In this document: piece by piece, positions 9,393-48,743 of the stretch
Position numbering within the stretch: position 1 is the first letter of the stretch
Layout of the letters: each line of letters begins with the position of its first letter
NCBI GenBank assembly: GCA_041674545.1
Contig: JBAYVO010000002.1
Coordinates: forward strand, 1-49,261
Length of the DNA: 49,261 nt
From: Candidatus Nanopelagicales bacterium
Lineage (GTDB): Bacteria > Actinomycetota > Actinomycetes > S36-B12 > UBA10799
Direction of reading: 5' to 3'
Made by a program: the position numbers and the translations under genes
Notes under the pieces: model-generated
The model's database searches: none
What the model was told of the DNA's origin: nothing
What the model saw: the letters and a program-made list of their open reading frames with translations, nothing else

Positions 9393-9639
9393 GGGTCGGG
9401 AGCCTACGGCTTTGAGCCCCACCGCGCTTGACGGCTCACCCGTTGGGCACGGTGCAACGTTGCGACGCTTGTGCGCTGAAGGCCGCAGATTTGACCCCAC
9501 CTCGACACGAGGCCCTCTCATCCTTAAGTCGGAGACCAGGAGGGTGGGATTCCAAGAGTTTACATTTGGAGCGGTGTTGTAAAGGTGTTTAGCGTGTTAG
9601 CTTCGCATGTCAATCCGTCTCAGATCGATAGGACACCAC

Positions 9640-12381
<2,742 letters not shown>

Positions 12382-12387
12382 CGATCC

Positions 12388-12443
12388 GACGTCAGGATGG
12401 TGGGAAGTGGTCGCTAGGCGACACCTTCCCACCATCCTGACGT
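12388..12443. terminator. Bidirectional terminator hairpin between the convergent cellulase and TetR genes
   Basis: About 19-bp arms GACGTCAGGATGGTGGGAAG / CTTCCCACCATCCTGACGT. The loop is itself self-complementary (GTCGC-TAG-GCGAC). Confidence 0.7.
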
Positions 12444-13108
12444 TAACGAACGAGTTCGGGGAGGAGTTTGGCGGCGATACGGCCGGACTGGGCCGCGATT
12501 TGGCGGGGCTTCCCGTCGGCGCCGAGCATGTGGCTGATGACCACACGGATGAGCGTGTCAACGGCGTCGGCGACGTCGCGCTTTGAACTACCGGGCGCGT
12601 TTGCGGAGAACCACGCGCGCAGGGCCTCGTTCGAGGTCGCCATCAACGCTTCCGATCGGGTGGTAACAAAAGGGAGTAGCGAATCAGCGCCACTGGGATC
12701 ACCATTCACGCCCGACGTCAGGATCGCTCGAATAACCGGACTCTTCTGGCCCTCGGTGATCGTGTACGACACAGCCCGCTCGACCGCCTTGATCGGAGTA
12801 TCGCTACTCGCCTCCAAGGCGGCGCCAATCCCCGCCAGGAACCGCTGCACCTCGAACATCACGAGCGCTTCGCCGAAGCCGTCCTTGCTTCCGAACTCCG
12901 CGTACATCGTTGGCCGGCTCACGCCAACCGCTTGCGCAATCTGTCCGATGCGAATCTGATCCCACCGCAATTCGACTAACTGCGCGGCTGCCAACTCCAG
13001 CGCTTGCTCGCGGACCTGTCGCCGGAAGGCAGTATGGGGAGAGTCGGCAACCACGTGGTCATCTTCCACCACCACAGGCCGACGTGCGAATTGACTGCCA
13101 CGATCCAC
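12443..13108 (-). CDS. TetR-family transcriptional regulator
   Basis: N-terminal HTH IGQIAQAVGVSRPTMYAEFGSKDG followed by a helical ligand domain. Start uncertain: GTG 13108, or in-frame GTGs near 13054-13075. Any of these overlaps the 3' end of the upstream gene out of frame. Confidence 0.85.
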   Translation of the reverse strand: MDRGSQFARRPVVVEDDHVVADSPHTAFRRQVREQALELAAAQLVELRWDQIRIGQIAQAVGVSRPTMYAEFGSKDGFGEALVMFEVQRFLAGIGAALEASSDTPIKAVERAVSYTITEGQKSPVIRAILTSGVNGDPSGADSLLPFVTTRSEALMATSNEALRAWFSANAPGSSKRDVADAVDTLIRVVISHMLGADGKPRQIAAQSGRIAAKLLPELVR

Positions 13109-15705
13109 CTACCTGCGTTGGAGACCAGCAGCCACATTCCAATGCCAAAGGCAAGCGAGGCCAGGAACGCAGCGATCTTTGCTTCACCGAACAATGGATA
13201 GATCTGCCAGTGGGTGAGGTAGATAAACAACGAAGCGCCCGCGACGAGTGCCACTACCTTGCCCAGGACAACTGGCACCCGAATTGTCGGCACCAATAAC
13301 AGGAGCGCAAGGCCGACCATCACGACCACTACCCGAGTTGCGTTCTCGGAGTAGCCAGGCAAAGTCGCCAAGACGAGCACGAATACGAGGACGCGATGCT
13401 GCCACGTCTGTGCTTTAGCGATCGCCCAGCCGAGGGCGAAGACAAACAACACCAGCCATGGGGTGTAAATCGCCTTCGGGCCGGTCGCCGTTTCGATCAC
13501 GCCGTAGCGCAGCAGCAACCCGAGTCCCAAGACCACAAGCACGAAGCCAAACGGCCAGCGCTGCTCGGCGCGATGCAGCGCAGGCACCGCCAGGATCATC
13601 ACGCTGAAGATCAACACATAGACCAGCGCTTCAACGAACCAATACCGCCACGCAGCGTTCTCCGAATCAGGCGGCATCACATTGTGCACGAAGAAGACAT
13701 TGGCGAAGCTGTACTCGCTATCAATCAGGACAGCGAGTGCCATCCACAACATGCTCGGAATCACTATCCGGCGGATGCTGACGAGCATCCCTCGAACTCG
13801 TTCCATCCTCGGCGCAGACGTCAGGTGGAAACGGGCGAAGTTGAATCCAGCTATCGCGATCAACAGGTGCGCACCGCCGCGAACATCAAACAACAGGATG
13901 TGCGAGCCGATCACCAGGAACACCGCTATCGCCCGCAAGAGCACATTGGTTTCGACCTGCTGAGTCCACCGTCGCCCTGCTCCGCCCGCGGATCGCGGAG
14001 AAGAGACTATCGGAAGTGCCGTGCCTGCGGCGGACTGCGCGAGCTCGCGGATCGACAACACGTGCCAATTCGGCGGGAGGGTGCGCAACAGTGATTCGAC
14101 GCGAGCGGACAGCTCCACGTAGGACATCGAATCGCCTCGAAGTGACACGAAAGAGGAGTCCTCGGTCGCATCAGCGCGACGCAACACGGTCGCGTATTCC
14201 TTCAGCAGCGCGGAGGTCAGTTGATCCGGACCAACGGCCAATCTCCCTTCGACGGCATCCGCGGCTTCCTCGCACGCGCACGCTTCGATGGCGAGCCTTC
14301 GCAATTCAGCCATGTCGACCTTGCCCGCGGACCCTCGCGGAAGTTCGTCGACCTCCACCACACCGATCGCGCTGGGAGCAATACCCGCAGCATCGGCTGT
14401 CAGACGCCGGACGAGCTCGCTGTCGATCGTCGAGCACTGGCCGTCGATTGCTACTACTAGGCGCTCATTAGCGTCATCGGACAAATCACCAGCAGCAAGC
14501 GAGAAGCAGGTCACAACAAGGTCGTGCTCGGCCAGACGCACCTCGACCTGCTGGAGGTCAATGCGCTTGCCAAATACCTTCGCGAAGCGCGCACGCCGAC
14601 CCACGACCTCGTAGAGTCCATCGGCAGTCACGCGCGCTAGGTCGCCGGTGCGCAGTTCGGTGATACTGCAGCCAAGCGCGAGATCGCTCGCGGTGATTGC
14701 GTAGCCCAGCATTACGTTGTCGCCGGTGTACACCAGTTCACCCACGTCTGGGGTTGTCGCCTCCTCGACGGGCTCCAGCCGTAATTCGCCCCCCGGCACC
14801 GGGATTCCGATGGCTTCGGGGAAGTCGACAGCAAGGTCCGGCGGCAGGTAGGCCATGCGAGCAGTAGCCTCCGTCTGGCCATACATGACGAAGAAGTCCC
14901 AGCCGCTGCGTTGCCCCAGTTGAGCCAACGATCGCACTCGCTCGGGCGCCAACCGCCCGCCCGCTTGCGTGACGTAGCGCAGGCGAGGCAGGTCCATGTC
15001 CGCAAAGCCGATTCGGTCGAGCAGATCGAACGAATACGGAACGCCAGCAAACGTTGTGGCACCGGATCGGCGAAACAGCGTCCAAAAGCACTCGTCAACC
15101 ACCGACAGCTCCGTCAGCACAATGCCTGCGCCACGACTGAGGTGGCTGTTGATGACCGACAGGCCGTAGCAGTAGCCCATCGGTAGCGAGGTCGCCGCAC
15201 GATCGGTATCGCGGATCTGCAGATACTCGGCGATCGAGTGAGCGTTTGCGTCAAGGTTGCGGTGCGATAGACGAACCAACTTGGGCGATCCCGTTGAGCC
15301 AGACGTACTCAGTAGCAGCGCAAGTTCCGGGTTGAGTTCGTGACTCGACACGTTGCGGTGGTTGTGGAGTTGCCCAGTTGAGTCGATCACGACATCGGGG
15401 TCGTACCCGTCGACAATTCCGGCAAGGCTGCGCTCCGAGTCGCCCGGAAGCAGAATGACGGGGTTGCCTGACTGCAGCGCAGCGAGGTACCAAACGAGCG
15501 AGTCAATAGTGTTCGTTGCCGCCAGGGCAACGAGCCGACGTTCCCCACCAAGGTGACGAGCAGCACTGTCAACCCGCGTTGCCAGTTCCGCATAGCTGAG
15601 GACTTCATCGTCCGTCATCACCGCAACCCGGTCGCCGAAAGCGGCGAGGTGGTCCACAAATTGGACCGACTTGCGGTCGAGTGGTGTGGAGATCGGTGGA
15701 GTCAC
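12976..15705 (-). CDS. Tri-domain fusion: adenylation (AMP-binding) domain - carrier (PCP/ACP) domain - acyltransferase-3 (AT3) polytopic membrane domain
   Basis: 909 aa. A-domain core motifs LLSTSGSTGSPKLV, YGQTE, TGDLA, GKVD. Carrier motif FVSLRGDSMSYVEL (Ser attachment site). About 340 aa of C-terminal multi-TM sequence with AT3-like start VETNVLLRAIAVFLVIGSH...FNFARF. GTG start. Confidence 0.85.
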   Translation of the reverse strand: MTPPISTPLDRKSVQFVDHLAAFGDRVAVMTDDEVLSYAELATRVDSAARHLGGERRLVALAATNTIDSLVWYLAALQSGNPVILLPGDSERSLAGIVDGYDPDVVIDSTGQLHNHRNVSSHELNPELALLLSTSGSTGSPKLVRLSHRNLDANAHSIAEYLQIRDTDRAATSLPMGYCYGLSVINSHLSRGAGIVLTELSVVDECFWTLFRRSGATTFAGVPYSFDLLDRIGFADMDLPRLRYVTQAGGRLAPERVRSLAQLGQRSGWDFFVMYGQTEATARMAYLPPDLAVDFPEAIGIPVPGGELRLEPVEEATTPDVGELVYTGDNVMLGYAITASDLALGCSITELRTGDLARVTADGLYEVVGRRARFAKVFGKRIDLQQVEVRLAEHDLVVTCFSLAAGDLSDDANERLVVAIDGQCSTIDSELVRRLTADAAGIAPSAIGVVEVDELPRGSAGKVDMAELRRLAIEACACEEAADAVEGRLAVGPDQLTSALLKEYATVLRRADATEDSSFVSLRGDSMSYVELSARVESLLRTLPPNWHVLSIRELAQSAAGTALPIVSSPRSAGGAGRRWTQQVETNVLLRAIAVFLVIGSHILLFDVRGGAHLLIAIAGFNFARFHLTSAPRMERVRGMLVSIRRIVIPSMLWMALAVLIDSEYSFANVFFVHNVMPPDSENAAWRYWFVEALVYVLIFSVMILAVPALHRAEQRWPFGFVLVVLGLGLLLRYGVIETATGPKAIYTPWLVLFVFALGWAIAKAQTWQHRVLVFVLVLATLPGYSENATRVVVVMVGLALLLLVPTIRVPVVLGKVVALVAGASLFIYLTHWQIYPLFGEAKIAAFLASLAFGIGMWLLVSNAGRWIVAVNSHVGLWWWKMTTWLPTLPILPSGDRSASKRWSWQPRS

Positions 15706-15759
15706 GATCTACCAGTCTACGTATTAGGTAAGGCTTGCCGTATTTAGGGTTTCCTGTCC

Positions 15760-16494
15760 TTACTGCGCAGCCGGGTCGTCCGCTTCCCGGCGAACCAGCT
15801 TCGCGGGCCAATGAGGCGTCACGGTGTAGATATCGTCGGCCATCGCAACAGCTTCATCCTCGTCGTGAGTCACCAAGATCACTCCTGCCCCGAGGTTCAC
15901 AAGCAGTTCTCGCACCTGCAAACGAAGCTCGCTGCGTAGCTGACTGTCTAACGCAGAGAATGGTTCGTCGAGTAGCACTGTCTGCGGTCGGCGGGCCAGT
16001 GCGCGAGCAAGCGCGACCCGCTGCTGCATTCCACCGCTGAGTTGATGGGGCGAGAGCTTCTGGGTGCCGGGCAAGCTCACGAGGTCGAGGAGTTCCTCGA
16101 TGCGTTCGTCAGCGAGGAGCCGTTGCGCCCTACTTCGCCGCGGCAACCCAAACCCGACATTGCCCGCGACGTTGAGGTGGGGGAACAAGGCGCCTTCCTG
16201 AGGCACAAGTCCCACGTTGCGCTTCTCTGGCGGGAGGTAGGTGCTGTCACCGCTGACCACTGTTCCGCTGAGCGTGATGCTGCCCGCCGACGGACGTATG
16301 AATCCGGCAACTGCCCTGAGCAGGGTCGTCTTTCCTGATCCACTCGGGCCTAGTACCGCCGCGACTCTGGCATTCTCGACCGTCAAATCTGTCTGCGCTA
16401 GCACCGGAGTTAACCCATAGCCGAGTGTTACTCCAACGACGGCAACTGCGGGCGACGCCAGCGTCGACGCAGTGTCACTTTCAACTGCCATCAT
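15760..16494 (-). CDS. ABC transporter ATP-binding protein (Fe(III)/FbpC-like importer ATPase)
   Basis: Walker A GPSGSGKTT, signature LSGGMQQR, Walker B VLLDEP. ATG 16494 overlaps the permease stop as ATGA. Confidence 0.9.
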   Translation of the reverse strand: MMAVESDTASTLASPAVAVVGVTLGYGLTPVLAQTDLTVENARVAAVLGPSGSGKTTLLRAVAGFIRPSAGSITLSGTVVSGDSTYLPPEKRNVGLVPQEGALFPHLNVAGNVGFGLPRRSRAQRLLADERIEELLDLVSLPGTQKLSPHQLSGGMQQRVALARALARRPQTVLLDEPFSALDSQLRSELRLQVRELLVNLGAGVILVTHDEDEAVAMADDIYTVTPHWPAKLVRREADDPAAQ

Positions 16495-18080
16495 CGTGCC
16501 ACCACCTCCCACCGCGTCGCGTCGCTATGCGCGGCCGGGCCTGACGGCCCATCTACGCGTTCCTTCGACGCTCTCACGAGGGGTACAGCCAAGACAAATG
16601 CGGGGATCGCGCCGATTGCAATGAGTGAGAGCGAATAGGGCGCGGCCGCCGCGTAGGCACCGACCTCCGACAGCGACCACAGCCGAGTAGCCAGCGTGTT
16701 CTCCCCTGTTGGGCGAAGCATCAAAGTGGCCGGGAGTTCCTTCATGACGGTGAGGAGGACGAGCAGCGCACCCGCGGCGATCCCCGGTGATGCGAGCCGC
16801 ATCGTCACGCGGATGAACGTCTGTGCGGGTGAGTAACCCAAAGTGCGCGCGACGTCTTCCAGTACCGGCGGCACCGTGGCGACTGATCCTCGGACAGCTG
16901 CCGCGGCTTTGGGAAGGAAGAGCACCCCGTAGGCAAACCCGAGCAGCGCAACAGTCTGGTAGAGACCGGGAACCAATCGGGTGCCCACAAAGACGATGCT
17001 CAGCCCCACAACCACCCCCGGCAACGCGTGGCCGACAAACGAGAACCGTTCGAGGCCTCGCGAGAGCCGAGATGGGTAGCGACCAGCAAGCAGTCCGACA
17101 GGCAGTGCCAAAGCCAACGCGACGACCATCCCGATGGTTCCGTACCAAGCAGATGTCAGCGCGGCGGTCACCAGATCTGCCGTATCGAGCGCGGCGCTGG
17201 TGCCCTCTACAAGTTGTCGAAGAGTGGACGAGATCGGCACGATAAGTCCAACAACCACCACTGCGGTGAGCAACGCGTAGGCGGGAATCCGCCAGGCGCC
17301 GAGGCTACTCGGCGGAGGCTGCCGCGGCGCGGACGTCGCCAGGCGCGAGCGCTGTGCGCGGCCGCGAGCACGTTGCTCGACTGCAACGACCAGCATCGCC
17401 AACAGCGCGAGCAGGAGCGCCAGCATTGCCGCAGACGACCGGTCGAAGGAACTCCGATAGGACGCAAAGATCGCCCGCGAGAGGGTGTCGACGCGCAGGA
17501 TCGATACCGCCCCAAAGTCGCTGAGGACGTACAACGCAACGAGGAGTGCGCCACCTCCAACCGCAGGCCAAATCTGTGGCAGTGCCGCGCGTAGAAACGC
17601 TGGGACTGCCCGCAATCCCAGCGTTCTCGCCACTTCTTCGTGGGCCGGATCGATGCTGCGCAGCGCAGCGGCCGTCGGCAGGATGACGTAGGGAAGCGTT
17701 ACGGCGGTGAAGACCAACCACGCCGCCCAGAATCCGGAGAATCCGGGGAACATGGACACCCAGGCGAACGCCCCCACAAAACTCGGAACGGCGAGTGGCA
17801 GCACGACGAGAACGATCCACAGACGCCGCAAGCGGAGCGCCGACCGAACAACGAGCCAGGCAACGGGAACACCAATCCCGACAGTGGTGAGTGCCACCAA
17901 GAAAGACAGCGACAGTGACGTTGCGGCCGCGTGCCAGACGGACGGCTGCGAGAACACCGTCTGTGCCGTTGTCGTTCCACCCTCGATTGCCCGAATCGCG
18001 AGGTAGACCACCGGCACACACACCACCACGGCCACTACCCCTGCGAGCAGGAGGAGCAGCCGTGGGGCGCGTGCGATCAA
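16491..18080 (-). CDS. ABC transporter permease, duplicated (two-module) FbpB-type
   Basis: 529 aa and about 12 TM. Two internal permease repeats, each with an EAA-like loop (EEVARTLG..., EDVARTLG...). The TTG start overlaps the upstream stop (TTGA), so the start is uncertain. Confidence 0.88.
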   Translation of the reverse strand: MIARAPRLLLLLAGVVAVVVCVPVVYLAIRAIEGGTTTAQTVFSQPSVWHAAATSLSLSFLVALTTVGIGVPVAWLVVRSALRLRRLWIVLVVLPLAVPSFVGAFAWVSMFPGFSGFWAAWLVFTAVTLPYVILPTAAALRSIDPAHEEVARTLGLRAVPAFLRAALPQIWPAVGGGALLVALYVLSDFGAVSILRVDTLSRAIFASYRSSFDRSSAAMLALLLALLAMLVVAVEQRARGRAQRSRLATSAPRQPPPSSLGAWRIPAYALLTAVVVVGLIVPISSTLRQLVEGTSAALDTADLVTAALTSAWYGTIGMVVALALALPVGLLAGRYPSRLSRGLERFSFVGHALPGVVVGLSIVFVGTRLVPGLYQTVALLGFAYGVLFLPKAAAAVRGSVATVPPVLEDVARTLGYSPAQTFIRVTMRLASPGIAAGALLVLLTVMKELPATLMLRPTGENTLATRLWSLSEVGAYAAAAPYSLSLIAIGAIPAFVLAVPLVRASKERVDGPSGPAAHSDATRWEVVAR

Positions 18081-19093
18081 ATCAGTCCGACGGAACGCAG
18101 CATCGCTTGCGTGCCGGGCAAGTCGCTGAGGTCATTGAGCTTGACCGGTGGGCTTTGCAAGCTCGACAGCGGCGGCGATCCGTTGGGTCCTGGGACACCT
18201 GGAAGCAGTGGGTATTCGAACGTTTCGGTCGCAAAGTAGGTTTGCGAGTCGGTGTTCAACAAGAAGGCGAGCAGCTTCTCCGCATTGGCGTTCGTTGCGT
18301 TCGAGGCAGTCAACCCGGCGGCAGCAACGTTGACCAATGACCCCGGATCACCAGGAGAGGTGAAGGCTTGGGTGGCCTTCATGTTCTGCGCGCCGCCCTT
18401 TTCTTTGGCGATCTGGAACCAGTAGTAGTGGTTTACCAGGCCAATTCCAAGGGCACCGTCGTTGATCGCGTTCACGATGGCGACGTTGTTCTCAAACTTC
18501 TGGGCGCCATTGGCGACGATGCCCTCGAGCCATGCCTCCGTCTTGGCGTCACCCTCGGTCATGCGCATCGCGGTGACGAACGATTGGAAGCTCGCATTGG
18601 TTGGCGCGATTCCAAGCTGGCCCTTGTATTCGGGCTTCACGAGGTCGTAGACAGTTTTTGGTGGCTTCGCGACGATTGTCGAGTTGTAGACAATCGAGCG
18701 AGCCCGTGCGGAAATCCCAGTCCACTGGGTCGTGCGGTAGACCTCGGGGACGGTGGTGGCAACGCTGGCGGGCAGCGGCGCAAGGAGGTTCGCCTTCTCA
18801 AGCGCTCCGATCGCACCGGCATCCTGGGAGAAGAAGACCTGCGCTGGGGTGTTCGACCCTTCTTCAGCAATCTGAGCGGAGAGCTCTGCCGAGTCCCCGT
18901 AGCGCACGTTGAGTTGCACACCGGTTTGTTCAGTGAACTTGTCGTACAGCGGCTTTACGAGCTTCTCGGACCGCCCGGAATAGACCGTCAGGCTGTTCTC
19001 ATCTGATGAAGACGACGACGAACAGGCGGCAAGTCCGACCATGGCAATAGCGGTAACACTGCTCGCAACGAGCAGCTTCTTTAGTGACTTCAC
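18077..19093 (-). CDS. Fe(III)-type ABC substrate-binding lipoprotein (FbpA/AfuA-like)
   Basis: Lipoprotein signal VKSLKKLLVASSVTAIAMVGLAAC from GTG 19093, with GGGGGAG 6 nt upstream. Body is a periplasmic-binding-protein fold sequence (LTVYSGRSEKLV...). The track ORF extends to 19207. Confidence 0.85.
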   Translation of the reverse strand: MKSLKKLLVASSVTAIAMVGLAACSSSSSSDENSLTVYSGRSEKLVKPLYDKFTEQTGVQLNVRYGDSAELSAQIAEEGSNTPAQVFFSQDAGAIGALEKANLLAPLPASVATTVPEVYRTTQWTGISARARSIVYNSTIVAKPPKTVYDLVKPEYKGQLGIAPTNASFQSFVTAMRMTEGDAKTEAWLEGIVANGAQKFENNVAIVNAINDGALGIGLVNHYYWFQIAKEKGGAQNMKATQAFTSPGDPGSLVNVAAAGLTASNATNANAEKLLAFLLNTDSQTYFATETFEYPLLPGVPGPNGSPPLSSLQSPPVKLNDLSDLPGTQAMLRSVGLI

Positions 19094-19112
19094 AAATACT
19101 CCCCCAGAGACA

Positions 19113-19131
19113 TTAGGCATGCCTAAGCTAA
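19113..19131. promoter_or_regulatory. IdeR/DtxR-type iron box upstream of the Fe ABC operon
   Basis: TTAGGCATGCCTAAGCTAA matches 15 of 19 positions of the consensus TTAGGTTAGCCTAACCTAA as I recall it. Contains the perfect 14-bp palindrome TTAGGCATGCCTAA. Lies 20-38 nt upstream of the GTG start. Confidence 0.5.
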
Positions 19132-19213: not shown

Positions 19214-20386
19214 TTAGTAAGGGGCGCCGACCGCTTTCGCCCAATCCGAATCAACGTGGAACGCACCGTCGGACACGCTCGTGACGACCACCGTCGCGGG
19301 TTCGCGGTTTCCGGTGTCAGCATCGAGACTGACCGATCCCGTCCATCCCTGCCACTCCGAAACGCTTCCCAGATAGCTCGTTAGTTGAGCAGCATCCCAA
19401 CCGTTGTTCTCCTTAACCCCAGCGAGCAGGAGGTTCAATGAGTCATAGGTGTAGGGGCTCCAGGTCCCTGGCGGGGCGCTGAACATGTCTTGGAAAGCAG
19501 TGACCTTTGCGGCAGAGTCAGGGAAGTCAGCCGGAGCGGGGACTCCGACTACGTCACAGCGCGGAGCCACCGAGGCACCCGCATCTTGGATGTAGCCGTT
19601 GTCGTAGGAGGCATAGTCCAGCAGGCATCGGTAGTTGGTCGAGCCCGCCTTGCGCGGTGTGATCTCGGTGGCGATGGTGGCGCCCTCGGGGTAGTAGACG
19701 GCCGAGTAGATCATGTCCGGCTTCTGTGCCTGCGCGGCCTGCAGTTGCGTCGCGTAGCTCGACTGACCTGGGGTGATGGCCTGGTAGCTCGTCACTTTGA
19801 CGCCGACCTTCTCCAAGTCCTTCTTCACCGCTGCCGACGTCGACACGGTGTAGTTCTGCGTCGAGTCGTACAGAATCGCCACCGACTTGGCGCCGTAGAA
19901 GCCGTACAACGCGGTCGCGGTGACTGGTGCAATCTGGCTCGTCATGGGCTGCAATGTGAAGCCCATTCCTTCGGTCGAGTTGTCCGAGGTTAAGCGCATC
20001 GGAACGAGTCCCGCCTTCTCGTACAACGGCAGCGTTTGCGAGCCGACACTGGAGTTGTACGGACCTATCACGCCGTTGAGGTCATTAGCGATCGCGGTAT
20101 TGGCGGCGGCAACTCCGGTTGCTGCGTCAGCGGCATCGTCGATTTGGACGATCTCGACGTTCTTGCCGGCCACCCCGCCTGCCTTGTTCACTTCGTCGGC
20201 GGCGAGCAGCGCACCCTGCAACATGCCTTGACCAAGCGTCGCTTGATCACCGGTCAGGGGCGCTTCAAGGCCAACCTTCCAGGTGTCGGCGGGGCTGCTC
20301 GTGCTCGCCGAACTGCAGGCACCTAGCCCGACAGCAATGACGAATGCACCCGCAAGGGCGCCCATCGTTTTGGTCCCGCGATTCAT
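19214..20386 (-). CDS. LivJ-like (branched-chain amino acid / amide type) substrate-binding lipoprotein, orphan
   Basis: Lipobox VGLGAC. LEAPLTGDQATLGQGMLQGALLAADEVNKAGGV is typical of type-I PBP LivJ family. No cognate permease or ATPase adjacent. Confidence 0.8.
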   Translation of the reverse strand: MNRGTKTMGALAGAFVIAVGLGACSSASTSSPADTWKVGLEAPLTGDQATLGQGMLQGALLAADEVNKAGGVAGKNVEIVQIDDAADAATGVAAANTAIANDLNGVIGPYNSSVGSQTLPLYEKAGLVPMRLTSDNSTEGMGFTLQPMTSQIAPVTATALYGFYGAKSVAILYDSTQNYTVSTSAAVKKDLEKVGVKVTSYQAITPGQSSYATQLQAAQAQKPDMIYSAVYYPEGATIATEITPRKAGSTNYRCLLDYASYDNGYIQDAGASVAPRCDVVGVPAPADFPDSAAKVTAFQDMFSAPPGTWSPYTYDSLNLLLAGVKENNGWDAAQLTSYLGSVSEWQGWTGSVSLDADTGNREPATVVVTSVSDGAFHVDSDWAKAVGAPY

Positions 20387-20488: not shown

Positions 20489-23227
20489 CTAGCGGGTAAT
20501 CAACCCGATTTCGACAGCACGGGAGGCAGCGTTTGCGCGGCCACGAACATTGAGTTTGTTGTAGATGCTGATGGTGTCTCGTCGCACTGTCGCGAGACTG
20601 AAGTTCAGCACGTCTGCGATTTCCGCGTTCGTTCGTCCCCGAGCGATTTCTTGCAAGATCGCGATCTCGCGGTCGGTCAGCAAGCGCGGTGTTCCGGCAG
20701 TGGCCATGCCACGCGGAACGCTACCGATCGTGCCGTGCAGTTGCCGGTGAATATGTTCACCGACTGCGCGCGCGGACGCCTCTAGTTGAGCATCACCAAC
20801 TACTTCGGCGAGATTCGCGATGATCAAACCCAACGAGCCTGAGCTCATCAGTGCCTCAGCGTCAACAGCGGCTCGGTCTACCCACGGTGCGAGCATCGGT
20901 AGCAGCACTCCCGCATGGTCGACGTCGCGGGTGATCACGGTCGCCTTGCCTAGGAATGCCAAGGATTGCAGCAGGCTTGATTCGTCATCGAGGAGTGGAA
21001 ATGTGCGCTCGATTCGATCAAGTGCGTCGTCCGTGCGCCCGAGATCTGCCAGCGCACACGAGACGGCCGCGCTCGTCAATGGGTGCATCGGAACGAGGTC
21101 GATCAACTTCTCGTTCGAGTTGAGGTATTCAACGTCGCGAACGATGATCGAACGATGGGTGCGTAGCGCGTGGTCCATCACGAACGCACCAGGAATCCCA
21201 GCGGCCGTACCCGCGTCGCTCGCGAGCTGGCGGTAGCGCTCGAACGCTTCCCAGTCACCGTCGATCCCCGCCACGCCAGCACGCAAGCCGAAGGTTCGCC
21301 ATTCGACTCGTGAGTCGCGCGCGCGTTCATTCATCCATTCGGCAATTGCGACAACCTCATCCGCGCTTTGGCGCTGACCGGCTTCAAGGTGATCAACAAC
21401 AAGGCGGACACAGGCTTCCAGGGTTTCGAGTGGCGAGTTGAGTTCCAGGGCGAGATCTAGTGCCTCTCGACTCACCCTCAGCCGACGCTCAAGGTGCATG
21501 GGGCCGCGATGCGTCCATCGCCAGCCAAGGAGCGCGATCAGTCGTGTCTGTGGATCGCCGGAGGTATCGGCAAGGTCGAGTGCTTCGTCGGCACGAGGCT
21601 GGGAGATCTCCGAGCGAACGACCCAGGCCCATTGTTGGCCGTCATCGGAGGGTTGTGGGATCCGCATCTCAAGCATCGAGCGCAACGCTTTGAGTTGGAT
21701 GGCCGCGGAGATTGTTGATTGGTCCGCGGTGTCATCGACGCGGTCCGCCATCTCCGCAGTGAGCGCCTCTTCAGCGAGCATCAACAATTCGAGGGCATCG
21801 GCGTTGCCCGCCCGCCAGTCGGGAGGAAACGCAAAACCGATTGCTGCCCTGGCAAGGGTGTACGCGTCACCGGTCACCGTTGCGAGGTTGGCCGCTTGAC
21901 GGTATAGGTCGTAGGCGATGTCCATTCGACCGATTCGAACGTTGGCTTCTGCGCGCCGCATTAGTCGGCGTGTGCGATGAGCCAGGTCAGGATTCTCGCC
22001 CTGGTCACGTTCTTGGGCGATACCAAAAAACTGATCGGCATCCTCGAAAGCAAGACCATCAAAGGCCTGCACTGCTGCAGAGTCTGCGAACCCACAGATC
22101 TGTTCATCAGGTACCCGGCCATTGCTTCTCAACGCATATGCCAGAACAAGCCCCCAGTCCGGTTTGGTTGCGTTGGCTAGCAGTTCTGCGTATCGCGCAC
22201 TGATTTCGCCCGCCATAGCTTCCGGAAGATCATCGATCAGGCGTGATCCCAGCAACGGATGCGCGACCTCAAGACTCACACCTCGCCTCATCAAAATCCC
22301 CGCCGCGATACCCCGTTCGCAGGCATCGGCCACTGCCGTTTCATCGATCGCCAGAACTTCTGCGAGCACCGCGGTCGCGTGGTCGCCGGTCAACACGATC
22401 GCGGCCAGTACTCGCTTGTCGGATTCCGAGACTGCGCCGAGGATCTGGCTGATCGCCTCGCCAACCACTGCGGGTGTCTCGATTTCGCGATGAGTGGCGA
22501 CAGCAAGTTGCTCGACAACGTTTGCGGCAGTGCGGCCTCGTTCCAAACCGACAATCGTTCCGAAGCACGCGAGGGGATTCCCACCCGTCAACGTCACGAG
22601 CTGAGCAGCGGCCGGTTCGAGCTCATTGGTTTGCAGTGCCGGATACCGGTCAGCGAGGGTCCTAAGAACCTCCGGCGCGCTTAGCCCGGTGAGGCCAATG
22701 ACGCGAGCATCGCTGGGGCCTTCGATCAAGGGCGAGGCCGAAAAGTCCAGCCTTTGCGTTGCGACGATGAGGACCGGCTCAGACATCACCATCGGGGCGA
22801 GGTGCATAAGCAAGCGCCGGGATGCCGCATCTGCCCATTGAAGATCTTCGATGACGAGTACGACCGGGGCCGGCAGGTCCAGGAGCAGCGTGAGCATCCT
22901 GTCAGCGATGTCAGCCATATCAGGCGACTGTTCATCACTGAGCCCGAACACAAACCTGCTGCCTTCGTCAGGCACACCCAATTTGCGGTCGGCCGAGGTG
23001 GCGACCGACCGCCAGAGCCGTAGCGGGGATTCGGTGACTTCATGCGCGGCGACGGTGAGCACCGACCCAAGTTGTACCGACGAGGTGAACTCTCGGATCA
23101 GCCGCGACTTGCCAACGCCCGGCTCTCCAACAACGATCGCGACGGCCCCACGTTCGTCACTGGCGTTGCGGTAGCACGACCCCAGCAGGCCAAGTTCGCG
23201 CTCGCGGCCGACGAAGGAGAGCTCCAC
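20489..23227 (-). CDS. LAL-type regulator (large ATP-binding LuxR family)
   Basis: 912 aa. N-terminal Walker A GEPGVGKSRL and Walker B VLVIEDLQWAD. Long helical (TPR-like) middle. C-terminal LuxR HTH LTDREIAILQEIARGRTNAEIADVLNFSLATVRRDTISIYNKLNV. Confidence 0.9.
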   Translation of the reverse strand: MELSFVGRERELGLLGSCYRNASDERGAVAIVVGEPGVGKSRLIREFTSSVQLGSVLTVAAHEVTESPLRLWRSVATSADRKLGVPDEGSRFVFGLSDEQSPDMADIADRMLTLLLDLPAPVVLVIEDLQWADAASRRLLMHLAPMVMSEPVLIVATQRLDFSASPLIEGPSDARVIGLTGLSAPEVLRTLADRYPALQTNELEPAAAQLVTLTGGNPLACFGTIVGLERGRTAANVVEQLAVATHREIETPAVVGEAISQILGAVSESDKRVLAAIVLTGDHATAVLAEVLAIDETAVADACERGIAAGILMRRGVSLEVAHPLLGSRLIDDLPEAMAGEISARYAELLANATKPDWGLVLAYALRSNGRVPDEQICGFADSAAVQAFDGLAFEDADQFFGIAQERDQGENPDLAHRTRRLMRRAEANVRIGRMDIAYDLYRQAANLATVTGDAYTLARAAIGFAFPPDWRAGNADALELLMLAEEALTAEMADRVDDTADQSTISAAIQLKALRSMLEMRIPQPSDDGQQWAWVVRSEISQPRADEALDLADTSGDPQTRLIALLGWRWTHRGPMHLERRLRVSREALDLALELNSPLETLEACVRLVVDHLEAGQRQSADEVVAIAEWMNERARDSRVEWRTFGLRAGVAGIDGDWEAFERYRQLASDAGTAAGIPGAFVMDHALRTHRSIIVRDVEYLNSNEKLIDLVPMHPLTSAAVSCALADLGRTDDALDRIERTFPLLDDESSLLQSLAFLGKATVITRDVDHAGVLLPMLAPWVDRAAVDAEALMSSGSLGLIIANLAEVVGDAQLEASARAVGEHIHRQLHGTIGSVPRGMATAGTPRLLTDREIAILQEIARGRTNAEIADVLNFSLATVRRDTISIYNKLNVRGRANAASRAVEIGLITR

Positions 23228-23458: not shown

Positions 23459-24094
23459 GTGCTGAATCCCACGACCGGTGTGCACCGCGCGGTACGCGCT
23501 GGTGCGTTGGGTGGGACATGCCTGCTCATCACCGTGCTGGGGCATGGAATCGCTAACGGACATTCGTCGGCGTTCGGCATCGCCCTACTCGCAGTCGTGA
23601 TGACGGCAATGGCAGTCTTCGCGACCTCGCGGGAACTGAGCTTCGTGAGCCTGCTCGCGTTCGCTGGGTTCACCCAGATCGGCGCGCACCTCCTGCTGTC
23701 GCTCCTTTCACCGGCGACCAACTCCCATCTGTCCGCGACGCCAACCTTCGGCTCGCGCGGCCATGACCATGCCGCTTCCGCGCACACCGCACTCACGAGT
23801 ACCAGCGTCGCAGCTGAGTTTCCAACCTCGATGCTTGCAATGCACCTCGGTGCCTGTCTGGTGATGGCAGCAATCCTGCGTCACGGCGAACGGGTGTACT
23901 TCCAGCTGCACCGGGCCCTGCCCGAGATCTTGCGGGTTCTCGTTGGCCGAGCGGTAATCGCGGTACCCAGACTCGCGCCAGTCGCGCGGCAAGCACGCGG
24001 ACTCCGTGATGCCCGCGAGGCTCTTCCTCTCGTCCGATTTATTGCAGAGCCGATACAACGCCGCGGACCACCCGTCGCGTTCGCATCTAGATAG
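23459..24094 (+). CDS. Hypothetical His-rich integral membrane protein preceding the copper module
   Basis: 211-aa GTG-start ORF with 4-5 hydrophobic segments and loops rich in His (GHGIANGHSS, GSRGHDHAASAH). No family recognised; the coding call rests on hydrophobicity pattern and context. Confidence 0.45.
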   Translation: MLNPTTGVHRAVRAGALGGTCLLITVLGHGIANGHSSAFGIALLAVVMTAMAVFATSRELSFVSLLAFAGFTQIGAHLLLSLLSPATNSHLSATPTFGSRGHDHAASAHTALTSTSVAAEFPTSMLAMHLGACLVMAAILRHGERVYFQLHRALPEILRVLVGRAVIAVPRLAPVARQARGLRDAREALPLVRFIAEPIQRRGPPVAFASR

Positions 24095-24269
24095 CTGCCA
24101 TTCACGACCTATTGCGATTCGCAGTCGTCCACGTTTCGCCCACGCTGTTCGATCGATCGCGATCTCTACTCCCACCACATCAGAAGCCTGACGCTCGCCG
24201 CCAACAAGCGCGGCCATCGCCAGGTACCCGAAACACACCCTCCTTCTCACGTTTTCGAAAGGTCTCCTC

Positions 24270-24986
24270 ATGTCAAAGAACCAATTCAAGGTCCGCGCGG
24301 TCTCGGCAACTAGTGCCCTCGTCATCGGCGGCGCACTCGTGGTCGCGGCAGCGACGCCCGCTTCGGCTCACGTCACCGTTTCATCGCCGAGTGCAACTCA
24401 AGGTGGCTACGGAACGATCACCTTCAAGGTCCCAACCGAGTCAGATACCGCAAGCACGACAAAGCTCGTGGTGACAGTTCCGGAGAACGCTCCGCTCGCC
24501 TCCGTGACCTACGAACCCGTACCGGGGTGGACGACGACCGTGACCAAGGTCAAACTTGCCAATCCGGTCACGGTTGGCGAAGCCACGCTCACCGAGCGCG
24601 TCGGGTCGATCACCTGGACCGCAAACAAGGATTCGGGAATCAAGCCCGGACAGTTCCAGACCTTCCCGATCTCGGCCGGACCACTGCCCAAGGTCGAATC
24701 CGTGACGTTCGACGCCGCTCAGACATATAGCGATGGCGAGGTTGTGAACTGGAACGAAGTTGAGGTCGCGGGCGGCGAAGAGCCAGCGAAACCGGCGCCT
24801 GTGCTCAAGTTGGCGGCTGCGGGCGCCGCTGCCGATGCTCACGGCGCATCGCACTCGACGAGCGAAAGCACCGAATCAACGTCAAGCACAAGCCCTTGGT
24901 CTATCGCGGCTTTGATCGCCTCAATCGTTGCCATCATCATTTCGGTGATCGCGATCGTCGGTTCGCGTGCCAAGCGTGAGCAGTAA
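24270..24986 (+). CDS. YcnI-family (DUF1775) copper-binding protein with C-terminal TM anchor
   Basis: Signal peptide ends ASA|HVTVSSPSATQGGYGTITFKVPTESDTASTTKLVV, the hallmark mature N-terminal His. C-terminal hydrophobic anchor WSIAALIASIVAIIISVIAIVG. Confidence 0.8.
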   Translation: MSKNQFKVRAVSATSALVIGGALVVAAATPASAHVTVSSPSATQGGYGTITFKVPTESDTASTTKLVVTVPENAPLASVTYEPVPGWTTTVTKVKLANPVTVGEATLTERVGSITWTANKDSGIKPGQFQTFPISAGPLPKVESVTFDAAQTYSDGEVVNWNEVEVAGGEEPAKPAPVLKLAAAGAAADAHGASHSTSESTESTSSTSPWSIAALIASIVAIIISVIAIVGSRAKREQ

Positions 24987-25548
24987 CCAGGCGTCGCAGG
25001 TGGGGTGGGCTTATGGCTCACCCCACCTGCGAGTTCGCGCAGCTCTGTTCGCTGTGGCGGTCGCCCTCGTCGCCTTCATATTCGGGGCCGCATCGCCGTC
25101 AACTGCTCACGATCAACTACTGATGGCCTATCCCGCCGACGGATCCATCAGCCCAAGGGCTCCGGCAGAACTCCAACTGACGTTCTCGCAATCACCAATG
25201 CCCGGAACAGCGACCGTGGTTGCGCAAACCAACACCGGTGCATCGGTCCCGCTCCCGACACCAGCCACGAACCGCGGCGTCGTGACGGTCGCGTGGCCAA
25301 GCAACCAACCTGCCGGAACCTACCGTGCATCGTGGCGCGTCACGTCTTCCGACGGGCATCCGATCAACGGGACGTGGACGTTCACCTACGGCCTGACATC
25401 CGCGCAACCGATGATCGAGCCGACAGTCTCGGAGTCGAACAACAGCGACGGATCTGGGTTGTGGATTGCGTTGAGCGCAGCCGTCATCGTCGCGGTACTC
25501 GGTGGAGCCGCGGTGCTCATGATGCGACGGCGCGGCCGAAGCGAGTAG
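24967..25548 (+). CDS. copC: CopC-domain copper-binding protein with C-terminal TM anchor
   Basis: Signal peptide ends STA|HDQLLMAYPADGS (mature N-terminal His); later SSDGHPINGTWTF. C-terminal TM WIALSAAVIVAVLGGAAVLMM. Start is GTG 24967 or GTG 25000; it overlaps the YcnI 3' end. Confidence 0.8.
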   Translation: MPSVSSNQASQVGWAYGSPHLRVRAALFAVAVALVAFIFGAASPSTAHDQLLMAYPADGSISPRAPAELQLTFSQSPMPGTATVVAQTNTGASVPLPTPATNRGVVTVAWPSNQPAGTYRASWRVTSSDGHPINGTWTFTYGLTSAQPMIEPTVSESNNSDGSGLWIALSAAVIVAVLGGAAVLMMRRRGRSE

Positions 25549-36950: not shown

Positions 36951-39900
36951 TTAGGCTCGTCTTGGAGTGCGTGGGACCCAGATGGAGACCGAGGGTTGCC
37001 TGGTCGACTGGCCTGACAATGCCTTGATCGATTGGTAGTTCAGCGAGTACACGTCTCTGAACCAATCGACTGCCATTCGGCCGCTGTTGACCTTCTCGAC
37101 TCTGAACAGTCGGGTCTCAGACTTCGGTGCGTAGACATCAAGGACGTAGTCGTTGATCGTCGTACCAGCGTTCCGGTAGCCGAGCACGTAGACGTAGCCG
37201 TCACCGTCGTTGCCGACGTCCAATAACGTCACACCGGGATCAGTTGGGGCGTAGAACTGTTCTTCCTCAGAGTTGCTGTTCTCGCTTGCAAATGCTTTGA
37301 CTGGAACGCCGAGCAGATTGAATGCCGAGAGTCGCTTCGCTCCTTGTTCGAGGATGACCAACACGCCATTTGACGAGACGGCCAAGCCGACCGGCTTGTC
37401 AAACAGTCCTGGGCGAGCACCGTCCTTATTGCCCGGCCCGCCAAAGACAGATGCCACCGGCGCGGTGCCTTCATCGACGGCGTGGGACTTCAAAGCCGGG
37501 CGAAGGATCGACAGTTGCGCCGAGTCAGTATTGATACCGGTGATGAGCCCGCCCGGCGCCAAGGACGCCGCATGCACTCTCGTTGGGATGTGCCCGTACA
37601 CCTTCTTTGGATCGAAGACGATCGAATTGTTGCCGAGAGCCAATTTGCGAATGTGGTAGCCATCTTGCTCGTCAGCCGTGGCTGCTACAGGTTCAAGAAG
37701 CCACGCTTCCGCGACGCCGTTGGTTCGATTTTGCAACGGATCCGTCAGCACGATCGGTGGATTGCCGGTGTACGTGGTGCTCAATTCCGCGGCACTAGCG
37801 CCAGGATCTTCGGAGCTGTTCAGCTGGCGCACGAACCACTTGCCGGCCGATTTGTAGACGTACCCCATCAGGCCCGTTCCGTGCCCATACATGACCGAAC
37901 CAAGCGTGAAGTCGGCGTCATGAATGGTGCCCGGAACTTCTGCTCCCTGCGCCATCACGTAGCGGCCACCAGCAACGTCAGTCGTCCAACGACGCTCAAG
38001 CCGGGACTTGCTCCCGAGTTCAACGGCGTCCTCGAGCACAGTCACTTCGATAGAGTCTTTGACCTCCTTGAGGTTTGAATTGTCGAGCCAATCGGTCGCT
38101 GCGGAACCGACTGTCCAACCATCCTGGCTCAGGATCGTGATGATGTACTGAATCCTGCCGCCAAATGGGACCTGCGGAAGCGGGATCTCTAATGGTTCGG
38201 TACGTGGGTTCTCGAAGGCGGGAATGACGGCGTACGTGGAGTACTTGTCACCGTCGATGACCTCGATGGTTTCTTTGAAGCCCGCCGGGAGGTACTCCTT
38301 GCCCTCGGTCTGATTCTCCAGCAGCACAGTTACCTTCCAGCACGCTGCCGACTTTGAGAAACCACTATCGAATTGCGGCTTTGCCGTCAAGACTGCGTCG
38401 TAGGTTGCAGACAGATCCCAGTAGTTTGTGTCGTTCTGGCAAACCGCCCCGGTCGCCTGACCCACCTGGGACGCGGCGCCAGCCAATGCCGTCACGATGT
38501 AGATCTGCCCGTAAATCGGAATTGCTTTCTGAATGGTTGACTCAGTTAGCGTCTCCAGGTAAAGGCCCATCGCCTTGTAAATAAACCTGTAGGTGAGGAA
38601 GTCCAGGATCATCTTCGAAATCGCGATAATTCCCGCCGAAATCTGATTTGAAGTACTGGCCAGCCTTCCTTTCATCAATCCCTCGATCAGACCGAACACC
38701 GTCTCGATCCAATAGATCGCACCGAATCCAGACTTACGACGCTTCGCGATGTCCTCCGCCGTCAAGTAGGTGATTTCGATTTCACCATCGTCATGCTTGA
38801 TCGTCTTGTAGTCGCTTGTCGTCTGACTACACATGTTTCGGAATCGGTTGGCAGCAATCGCTTGGCTGAGGAACATCAATCCTGGAATTCCGATGTCGAC
38901 GACTGCGGTGGTGAACACAGCATCTTGGTACCAATCGGGACGGACGTAGTGATTGTCCGCAGTGTCGACGTAGGCCGGCAACAACTTTGGCTTACCATCT
39001 GGCCCCAAGACTTCGGTTCCATTGGCATCCAACTCGACAGACTTGAACAGATCCCGCCAGTCGTTGCCAGTGCCAAGTGATCCCGCGATTACCCGTGCTC
39101 GGACCGCTTCCGCCGGCATCGGGATCGAGATATCCAAGTAGTTCGAATCGAGACCAACCGGCAGGCCCATCACAATGGGAATTGATTCAAGCAAACGAGC
39201 CCCAAGGCGCCACGTTGGATCCAGCTTGTTGTTCGACAGCCGATAGTCGTCCGGTGGTGAAATCGGCAGATCTCTAGAGTCAAAGTACTGAACGCCGAAG
39301 GTGACAGTACGGTCGAGGTTGTTCCAGACGCGAAGCTTCAGCTGAGTCCCGCCACCCTGTGCCTGGCTTGTTTCTTTGAGCTGCACGTACATCCCGTTGC
39401 GACTCTTCTTTTCGCCCTGCAGGACTGAGTAGTTCACCTTGGCGTCGTTTGATCCGCGGAACTTCGCCAACACTCCGCCACCCGCGCTATTGCTCCTGGC
39501 TGCGTCGCTAACGGTTATTGGGCTAGGTGGAGTGGCCGGCATGACCGCCCAGGTCTTGCCACCGAGGTCGTTGAGGTCGGTCTCAGCGTTGATCATTGCA
39601 CCAAGGTCAGGCTCGGCCTGGACAACTTCATTGCCTTCTGCAAGCGCTGCCTGCAAGGCGGCTTTGTAGTTGAAGATGAGGTCGCGAGGAATCTCTTTGC
39701 CTTGCCACTTCATGCCCATCTGGACGAAGGGGATCAAGGTCTTTGCCGGGAGTTCACCAATCTCCGGATCGACGGAGATTGTCGGTTCCCCGGGGGGCTT
39801 CTCGTAGCTAGTCCCGAGCCTTGGGTCAAGAGTTTGCGGCACGATCTTGCCGGACTTCACGCCCTTCACCATGTCTTCGAGAATCCCGTACGGGGCCCTC

Positions 39901-48560: not shown

Positions 48561-48743
48561 TGATTGCCCAGTCCTGTCTGTTCCGCAGCGGGCAAATGAC
48601 ACCCACTTCCGACACTTTCCTCCGGAGATGCAAACACAGATGACAGGCCTAAACGGAGCCGAAGCTGGTGTTCGTCAACGAATCGGAACAAACGTTCGGC
48701 GCACACCTCAGCGGGAACTACTCAGCGTGACATATGCCAGCAT

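Follow-up and report, generated by a model that had tools for sequence, protein, structure and literature searches.

The 49,261-nt stretch of DNA analysed here (the window), from a Candidatus Nanopelagicales bacterium, encodes on its minus strand a 909-residue protein that unites an adenylation domain (A), a carrier or thiolation domain (T) and an acyltransferase-3 membrane domain (AT3) in a single polypeptide. This A-T-AT3 gene (12976..15705) starts with GTG, ends with TAG, and follows three minus-strand genes for a ferric-iron importer of the FbpABC type: an fbpA-like ferric-binding lipoprotein (18077..19120), an fbpB-like fused double permease (16491..18080) and an fbpC-like ATP-binding cassette (ABC) ATPase (15760..16512). 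One predicted iron box lies in front of the A-T-AT3 gene and a second covers the start of fbpA. All positions refer to the whole window, and residue numbers refer to the 909-aa protein. The window has a G+C content of ~60%, and its nearest named relatives are Nanopelagicales-like actinobacterial metagenome-assembled genomes (MAGs).

Three domains in one polypeptide

The open reading frame (ORF) and its composition from an ANL adenylation domain, a carrier and an AT3 domain are as the initial annotation of this DNA had described them, and every motif quoted there was located in the translation: SGSTGSPK at residues 135-142, YGQTE at 275-279, TGDLA at 353-357, GKVD at 461-464 and GDSMS at 524-528. 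The N-terminus of the protein aligns with the MTP... starts of its homologues. Residues 1-480 (14266..15705, minus strand) match the Pfam AMP-binding model (PF00501, E=8e-43) and carry the core motifs of the ANL superfamily, namely A3 (SGSTGSPK, nt 15280-15303), A5 (YGQTE), A7 (TGD), A8 (GRRARFAK) and the A10 lysine (Lys462, nt 14320-14322).

The predicted carrier domain spans residues ~490-562 (14020..14238, minus strand). When this linker region was scanned alone, it scored 19.9 bits against the PP-binding model, for which the cut-off is 20.8; the corresponding Pfam family, PF00550, is precomputed for most homologues of A-T-AT3. In the AlphaFold model, the region is a small helical bundle with a G-x-D-S signature (GDS, residues 524-526) and a helix from 526 to 540 that opens at Ser526. 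The predicted phosphopantetheine attachment site (Ser526, nt 14128-14130, minus strand) is therefore modelled at the N-terminus of helix II, as expected of a carrier domain, and Foldseek matched the region to solved peptidyl and acyl carrier proteins (PCP/ACP) with a probability of 0.99. The same program related the N-terminal part of the model to A-T didomains and acyl-CoA ligases.

The membrane domain follows at residues ~583-872 (13090..13959, minus strand). It matches Acyl_transf_3 (PF01757) with E=1e-10 and 41.6 bits, compared with a gathering threshold of 31, and the match covers residues 589-856 and profile positions 6-315 of 326. About ten long helices lie between residues 586 and 872 in the AlphaFold (AF2) models, in line with the ~10 transmembrane (TM) helices given by the initial annotation. 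An R-X10-H motif in the first transmembrane helix (TMH1) is absolutely conserved and essential in AT3 proteins (PMC9833829). In A-T-AT3, Arg591 (nt 13933-13935) and His602 (nt 13900-13902, both minus strand) are exactly 11 residues apart. A late helix contains the sequence SLYIYLTHWQ, which hhalign aligns with TYGIYMLHP of one canonical AT3 protein, a YxxH-type motif. We found no sequence relative of the AT3 part in the Protein Data Bank (PDB). The whole-protein model has a mean pLDDT of 78.9. A separate model of the T-AT3 part (residues 486-909) reaches a pLDDT of 86.6 and a pTM of 0.85, and in it carrier and AT3 form one confident body with the carrier ~25 residues before TM1.

Condensation, thioesterase (TE) and reductase (R) domains were absent from A-T-AT3 in Pfam and NCBIfam scans. 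The label "non-ribosomal peptide synthetase" (NRPS) that the protein carries in some databases applies by name only. NCBIfam holds no curated model for A-T-AT3; all matches fall well short of the model cut-offs, and the best, TIGR03098, gives 155 bits against a cut-off of 592.

The initial annotation had also considered that the ORF might be two genes joined by a sequencing frameshift. Such a frameshift or assembly artefact can be ruled out with practically no doubt, given a 99%-identical copy and the same uninterrupted architecture in at least 80 independent genomes, complete chromosomes included. The 99%-identical protein comes from an independent metagenome contig of 161 kb, on which its gene has the same neighbours. 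More than 100 full-length relatives of ~50% identity, annotated only as "AMP-binding protein", have the same three domains in cultured Streptomyces, Micromonospora and Rhodococcus; Mycobacterium and Arthrobacter are further genera with full-length relatives, and the family also occurs in Nocardia. A database survey of the architecture, which the initial annotation had recommended, puts the full-length relatives at about 500 species or more: with one genome taken per species, at least 497 were confirmed among the first 600 pattern matches. The family belongs mostly to Actinomycetota: the best 80 relatives come from many actinobacterial genera, from Acidimicrobiia and, at 34-36% identity, from several Alphaproteobacteria.

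Conservation was counted over 82 family members, alphaproteobacterial ones included. Lys462 is kept in 81 of these, while Ser526, Arg591 and His602 are kept in all 82; K142, E279, D355, K376 and K462 are each kept in at least 80. Since the catalytic residues of all three domains persist in 81 or 82 of 82 members, the adenylation, carrier and AT3 activities appear to be under selection. The AT3 part alone, compared with 1.8 billion cluster representatives, gave 291 matches at E<=1e-30; among the best 150 of these 291, about half are fusions of 800-1000 aa, and the remainder are shorter and mostly fragment-like. The single locus checked as a candidate for a split T-AT3 gene is a 2.2-kb fragment and is uninformative.

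Full-text literature searches returned no description of the A-T-AT3 architecture. It is also absent from the AT3 reviews and the TmAT superfamily paper that we used, among them PMC9558356 and PMC12423673, and the paper on the DmdR1 regulon of S. coelicolor lists no such gene. By its sequence, A-T-AT3 is a member of the AT3 family with a predicted N-terminal loading module that has not been described. A search for RNA datasets that contain the window sequence found none, and the only match was one landfill DNA metagenome run.

Two overlaps were observed at the 3' end of this gene family. A TetR-family ORF (TetR_N and TetR_C_35; 12443-13108, minus strand) overlaps the 3' end of the A-T-AT3 gene of the window in another frame, and ORF calling gave the same overlap, of ~40 nt, in a relative of 63% identity (L087). 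In the lineage of the window, conservation of the C-terminal tail of A-T-AT3 may thus be due in part to this overlapping regulator gene. In Rhizorhapis suberifaciens (L071), a canonical stand-alone AT3 gene (12577-13662, plus strand; Pfam E=6e-26) starts within the last codons of A-T-AT3, which suggests two AT3 enzymes in one operon.

Linkage to FbpABC and predicted iron boxes

Neighbouring genes were compared in 85 loci, the window and 84 fetched ones, by calling and clustering their ORFs. Once antisense shadows are set aside, three families recur, all within 4 kb of A-T-AT3: a solute-binding protein (SBP, 43 loci), a fused double permease of ~529 aa (46 loci) and an ABC ATPase (35 loci). In the window, these are the FbpA-like lipoprotein, the 529-aa permease with two BPD_transp_1 domains, and the ATPase with a Pfam ABC_tran domain. 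FbpABC lies within 4 kb in 46 of the 85 loci. The FbpA-like protein has a LAAC lipobox and is matched in the PDB by VmFbpA (7w3w, best E=4e-71) and by 28 other FbpA, HitA, SfuA and FutA entries, including those from Neisseria and Haemophilus and YfuA. Its Tyr-Tyr pair aligns with Tyr195/196 of VmFbpA and is invariant in all 41 neighbouring SBPs. At the position of the third tyrosine of Thermus FbpA, the same 41 proteins have N, G, K or T and never Tyr. With an invariant YY pair and no third tyrosine, the neighbouring SBPs classify as "two-tyrosine" FbpAs. In the two-tyrosine protein VmFbpA, anions from outside complete the coordination sphere of the iron, for which four sites are left (PMC10804667).

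At least four placements of the importer occur around A-T-AT3. It lies upstream on the same strand in the window and in Mycobacterium, Lentzea, Saccharothrix and Arthrobacter; it is divergent in Streptomyces, Micromonospora and Phytohabitans; it lies downstream on the same strand in Rhodococcus, Nocardioides, Janibacter, Citricoccus and Georgenia; and it is convergent in Agromyces and Microbacterium. The fbpC stop overlaps the A-T-AT3 start in eight loci. Because this adjacency outlives rearrangement, gene order provides strong evidence that A-T-AT3 and FbpABC share a function. The initial annotation had pointed to glycosyltransferases as possible neighbours; across the 85 loci, neither these nor other wall-polymer genes are conserved beside A-T-AT3, and the conserved partner is FbpABC instead. 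Siderophore biosynthesis genes are likewise not conserved beside A-T-AT3 in these loci. Other candidates for conserved neighbours (MetH, CoA-transferase III, HAD, DUF1206 and two-component genes) were rejected as local synteny, and the neighbours of the alphaproteobacterial loci are variable.

Two observations concern the importer itself. The FbpC of the window is short (244-250 aa) and has no C-terminal TOBE_2 regulatory domain; counterparts in Streptomyces and Rhodococcus have 346-353 aa and TOBE_2 is present. In Rhodococcus koreensis (L085, 16176-18625), an NRPS gene (C-A-T-C...) starts 1.7 kb downstream of the linked FbpABC, and the two may form an iron-acquisition island.

The second line of evidence for an iron context comes from predicted regulator sites. 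The degenerate form of the IdeR iron box is TWAGGTWAGSCTWACCTWA. Allowing up to three mismatches to this form, we searched 1.47 Mb of DNA from 71 actinobacterial loci and used 20 shuffles as a control. The search returned 65 matches, compared with 0-1 in the shuffles. Fifty-nine of the 65 boxes lie directly upstream of A-T-AT3 or fbpA, in 51 loci, some of which have no ABC transporter neighbour. The other six are near the beginning of either the A-T-AT3 match or the fbp operon and miss the scoring window, probably because the ORFs had been called too long or too short. In loci that lack the transporter (for example Arthrobacter, Pedococcus, Micromonospora coxensis and several MAGs), the box is found 8-15 nt before the start codon, and in one such MAG it agrees with 18 of 19 consensus positions.

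The 19-bp palindromic consensus of the DtxR/IdeR iron box is TTAGGTTAG(G/C)CTAACCTAA (PMC1382209). A strict search of the window, with up to three mismatches, gave no match; the boxes of the window surfaced only with five mismatches or with the degenerate consensus. Predicted box 1, TTAGGTAAGGCTTGCCGTA (15724..15742), lies 19 nt upstream of the GTG, a position that it shares with most actinobacterial loci. It falls within the 54 nt that separate the fbpC stop from the GTG, and a -10-like TAGACT comes after it, eight nt before the GTG, an arrangement that suggests a leaderless A-T-AT3 transcript with a promoter covered by the box. Predicted box 2, TTAGGCATGCCTAAGCTAA (19113..19131), covers the start of fbpA, and operon-type loci have an equivalent box. 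When iron is in good supply, iron-uptake genes are repressed through iron boxes that overlap their promoters (PMC9132128). The placement of these sites identifies A-T-AT3 in Actinobacteria as a predicted member of the IdeR/DtxR (DmdR) iron-starvation regulon.

None of the 11 alphaproteobacterial loci contains the actinobacterial iron box. Upstream of A-T-AT3 in Rhizobiales (L072 at ~9895, L082 at ~9913, L069 and L079) we observed a RirA-box-like TGA-N9-TCA motif, which is exact in Mesorhizobium and Sinorhizobium and one base off in Phyllobacterium. This motif hints at an iron link beyond Actinobacteria and is too short to count.

Just upstream of fbpA lie an orphan binding protein of the Leu/Ile/Val type (Peripla_BP_6; 19214-20386, minus strand) and a large LuxR-family AAA regulator (20489-23227, minus strand). 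Both are kept in the close lineage (L001, L087) and not in the wider family, and both are beyond the unit that the predicted iron boxes would control. Copper-handling genes (DUF1775/YcnI-like and CopC) adjoin the LuxR gene in the window (23459-25548, plus strand) and in L001 (158-1436). Very large proteins, characterised by pentapeptide repeats, NHL/teneurin-like repeats and fn3 domains, are encoded in a row at 25581-48602 on the minus strand, and two proteins of this row, of 1255 aa (36951-40718) and 1896 aa (42912-48602), have no Pfam match. The giant ORFs at 30-48 kb were considered as a possible siderophore NRPS and rejected, as they encode pentapeptide/NHL/fn3 proteins. On the other side of the A-T-AT3 gene, a 924-aa secreted protein (9607-12381, plus strand) combines an AA10 lytic polysaccharide monooxygenase with a GH5 cellulase and CBM2 cellulose-binding domains.

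Proposed mechanism and alternatives

What acid might the adenylation domain activate? The domain is NRPS-like at both ends, with an A1 motif LSYAEL and a following PCP-type GGDS carrier. Its A4 region reads LPMHYCYGLS in most members, and the PMHYCYG part resembles the PxxHxxG motif of acyl-CoA ligases and synthetases. In NRPS adenylation domains and in DltA, the α-amino group of the substrate is bound by an aspartate at Stachelhaus position 235, within an FDxS motif. Two independent alignments with LgrA place Cys179 or Tyr180 of the YCYG motif at this position. These two residues are invariant in Actinobacteria and are Ser/Tyr in Alphaproteobacteria. Because the equivalent of Asp235 is replaced, a standard α-amino acid, D-alanine included, is an unlikely substrate, and a DltA-like or classical amino-acid specificity was rejected. 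The initial annotation had proposed comparing the specificity code with those of DltA and NRPS enzymes; the code lacks the α-amino aspartate and is not DltA-like, and DltA is not among the 60 best PDB relatives of the domain. Structural neighbours did not identify the substrate. LgrA and oxalate-CoA ligase are among the PDB relatives, EntE-EntB, MenE and MatB are among the Foldseek matches, and these score much like McbA, oxalyl-CoA synthetase, malonyl-CoA synthetase, aryl-acid ligases and Thr or Pro adenylation domains. The approximate pocket residues (C/Y, S183, Q247, A282, M284 and K462) are nearly invariant, which points to a single acid for the whole actinobacterial family. Since no dedicated biosynthesis genes travel with A-T-AT3, this acid is probably a common metabolite, and probably not a standard α-amino acid.

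These observations can be combined into a catalytic scheme. A-T-AT3 would be made under iron starvation, in the window together with the upstream fbpABC genes. The ANL domain would use ATP to adenylate a carboxylic acid of the kind just described and load it as a thioester on the phosphopantetheine arm of Ser526 in its own carrier. In a model of an AT3 enzyme, acyl-CoA reaches the histidine of TM1 with its pantetheine part extended through the pore (PMC9833829). By analogy, we infer that the carrier of A-T-AT3 would sit at the cytoplasmic mouth of the AT3 pore, with its arm in place of acyl-CoA, and that it would offer the thioester to His602 near the outer face, so that transfer would proceed outwards. 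The acyl group would then pass to an extracytoplasmic acceptor, which could be a wall or membrane glycoconjugate, a protein or a small molecule. The product would help Fe(III) to reach the membrane-anchored two-tyrosine FbpA, either through ligands or binding sites that it provides or through an altered retention of cations by the envelope.

With moderate confidence, we favour the view that A-T-AT3 is a membrane enzyme of three domains, induced by iron starvation, and that it carries an acyl group through the cytoplasmic membrane without coenzyme A (CoA). Adenylation, tethering and transfer by AT3 is the best-supported mechanism for this protein. The initial annotation had suggested a Dlt-like logic of this kind. 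Its central part, in which an acid is activated, tethered and passed to the AT3 domain of the same protein without CoA, is consistent with the conserved residues, with the short distance between carrier and TM1 and with the single AF2 body. The Dlt label itself holds as an analogy only, and iron starvation takes the place of general wall decoration as the predicted physiological setting.

Several observations weigh against this view. The iron boxes are predictions from sequence only. FbpABC is not a neighbour in 39 of the 85 loci, including all 11 alphaproteobacterial ones. Conversely, all four FbpABC operons checked whose SBPs are 54-67% identical to that of the window have no adjacent A-T-AT3, which argues that the importer needs no A-T-AT3 next door. 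In small-genome actinobacterial MAGs (L089-L092), the related FbpABC genes lie among the purine-biosynthesis genes purS, purQ and purL, with no A-T-AT3 gene close by. A Foldseek search of the PDB gave no significant match for the membrane domain (best E=0.25). Finally, AT3 proteins have a highly conserved RXXR motif at the cytoplasmic side of TMH3, to which the 3'-phosphate of CoA binds in simulations (PMC9833829), and no clear RXXR was seen in A-T-AT3 by manual comparison with one canonical AT3 protein (RRFARLAP); in the hhalign comparison with one canonical AT3, only the C-terminal helices aligned and the RXXR region fell outside the alignment. In this region, R636 and R638 are present in 60-63 of 71 actinobacterial members and are not kept in alphaproteobacterial ones, and R646 is present in 42 of 71; all three precede P650. 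If the absence of RXXR is true, the loss of a site for the CoA nucleotide would fit a protein-bound pantetheine donor.

An alternative, which we consider unlikely, is that A-T-AT3 performs a membrane-bound, one-enzyme step of metallophore formation: A-T would load a building block, AT3 would move it onto an exiting endogenous siderophore or a simple nucleophile to give an acylated or tethered chelator, and the iron of the chelator would pass to FbpA. The NRPS-like A-T didomain and the predicted membership in the iron regulon would both suit this role, as would the four iron sites that a two-tyrosine FbpA leaves to outside ligands (PMC10804667) and the NRPS gene beyond the linked FbpABC of Rhodococcus koreensis. 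Acylation of small molecules, macrolides and chromomycin among them, is known from some AT3-only enzymes (PMC9558356). Against this role, siderophore biosynthesis genes are not conserved beside A-T-AT3, the protein has no condensation domain and no known product, and FbpA-type proteins usually take unchelated Fe(III).

It is rather improbable that A-T-AT3 serves to decorate a cell-envelope polymer in a general, Dlt-like way, for charge or for protection from lysozyme or phage, and has no specific role in iron metabolism. Promoter iron boxes in most actinobacterial loci, the repeated evolution of FbpABC adjacency, the lack of conserved glycosyltransferase or wall-polymer genes nearby and an A domain unlike DltA all argue against this reading, even though most characterised AT3 enzymes acylate surface glycans (PMC9558356), the alphaproteobacterial members have neither the FbpABC neighbour nor the actinobacterial iron box, and a stand-alone AT3 induced by metal starvation, AimS of A. 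baumannii, leaves metal content unchanged (PMC13345540). Lipid remodelling in the manner of Aas, with a fatty acid activated by the A domain and a membrane lipid or lipoprotein re-acylated by AT3 during iron starvation, is very improbable: models of long-chain fatty-acid ligases and of Aas (acyl-ACP-phospholipid acyltransferase) match with E=1e-29 to 1e-35 and the A4 motif resembles that of acyl-CoA synthetases, but all of these scores are far below the cut-offs and no better than those of amino-acid adenylation or oxalate/malonate ligases. The protein has neither a PlsC domain nor a FAAL-type insertion, and nothing ties lipid reacylation to FbpABC.

If the preferred reading of A-T-AT3 as a CoA-independent membrane acyltransferase of iron starvation is right, what would its product be for? 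In the partner FbpAs, the protein itself provides only two iron ligands, and a product that binds Fe(III) and hands it over at the membrane surface is therefore an attractive but unproven purpose; an altered holding of cations by the wall is another possibility. We tentatively propose, as a possible though doubtful extension, that A-T-AT3 is the missing outer-face partner of siderophore-independent Fe(III) uptake in Actinobacteria, which would use ATP and its carrier arm to place an iron-binding acyl group at the outer membrane surface, or release a ligand there, to feed the two-tyrosine FbpA. The sequences show the architecture, the residue conservation, the predicted iron boxes and the FbpABC linkage, whereas the tethered arm in the pore, the direction of transfer, the acid, the acceptor and a benefit to iron uptake are what we infer.

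Relation to known systems

The Dlt system for D-alanylation in Firmicutes (DltA, DltC, DltB and DltD) resembles the scheme proposed for A-T-AT3 in using adenylation, a phosphopantetheine thioester, a polytopic membrane acyltransferase and an acceptor on the outside, all without CoA. In contrast to Dlt, A-T-AT3 is one polypeptide, and its membrane part belongs to the AT3 family (TmAT superfamily), whereas that of Dlt is an MBOAT protein. Its A domain lacks the aspartate that binds the α-amino group and is not close to DltA. No DltD or DltX partner, as a Dlt system would have, is conserved nearby in the 85 loci. A-T-AT3 further differs from Dlt by its predicted iron regulation and its linkage to FbpABC.

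For AT3 enzymes, the generally assumed donor is acyl-CoA from the cytoplasm. The classical representatives OafA/OafB, OatA, Oac, IcaC and OpgC share with A-T-AT3 the PF01757 domain, the R-X10-H of TM1, a core of ~10 helices and the YxxH-type motif of a late helix. These enzymes use an acyl-CoA donor and either stand alone or carry a periplasmic SGNH domain, while A-T-AT3 has a cytoplasmic N-terminal A-T loader, no SGNH domain and, in our manual comparison, no clear RXXR. The only AT3 architectures listed in the reviews and the superfamily paper that we used are AT3-only, AT3-SGNH, AT3-racemase (VanT) and eukaryotic NRF fusions. VanT is a precedent in that its AT3 domain is joined to a cytoplasmic enzyme by which a small acid substrate is made or handled (PMC9558356, PMC12423673). 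In VanT, however, the fusion is C-terminal and to a racemase, and both a carrier domain and ATP-dependent activation are lacking.

In physiological terms, the closest precedent is AimS of A. baumannii. This stand-alone AT3 is induced by Fe and Zn starvation, and its conserved His and Arg are needed for fitness in low iron (PMC13345540). Like A-T-AT3 as predicted here, AimS is an AT3 protein induced by iron limitation. Unlike A-T-AT3, it comes from another phylum, has no A-T module and no reported link to FbpABC, and acts through pilus regulation, with metal content unchanged (PMC13345540). The importer genes beside A-T-AT3, by comparison with FbpABC, HitABC and SfuABC, are ordinary members of their families: an SBP of the two-tyrosine VmFbpA class, a fused permease and an ATPase. 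To our knowledge, no described Fbp system includes an acyl-activating membrane acyltransferase.

A subfamily of AT3 enzymes fed by A-T modules would show that the AT3 pore can be supplied by a tethered phosphopantetheine arm, in convergence with DltC and DltB. Tethered feeding would make acids without a CoA ester accessible to AT3 chemistry. Genome-mining tools probably flag A-T-AT3 genes as orphan "NRPS-like" loci, and their assignment to iron metabolism would remove a recurrent false lead. For monoderm Actinobacteria, A-T-AT3 is a testable candidate for the supply of "naked" Fe(III) to FbpA-type importers. If the proposed function is true, this protein would be the first AT3 enzyme shown to use a protein-tethered donor in place of acyl-CoA, and a new component of iron acquisition.

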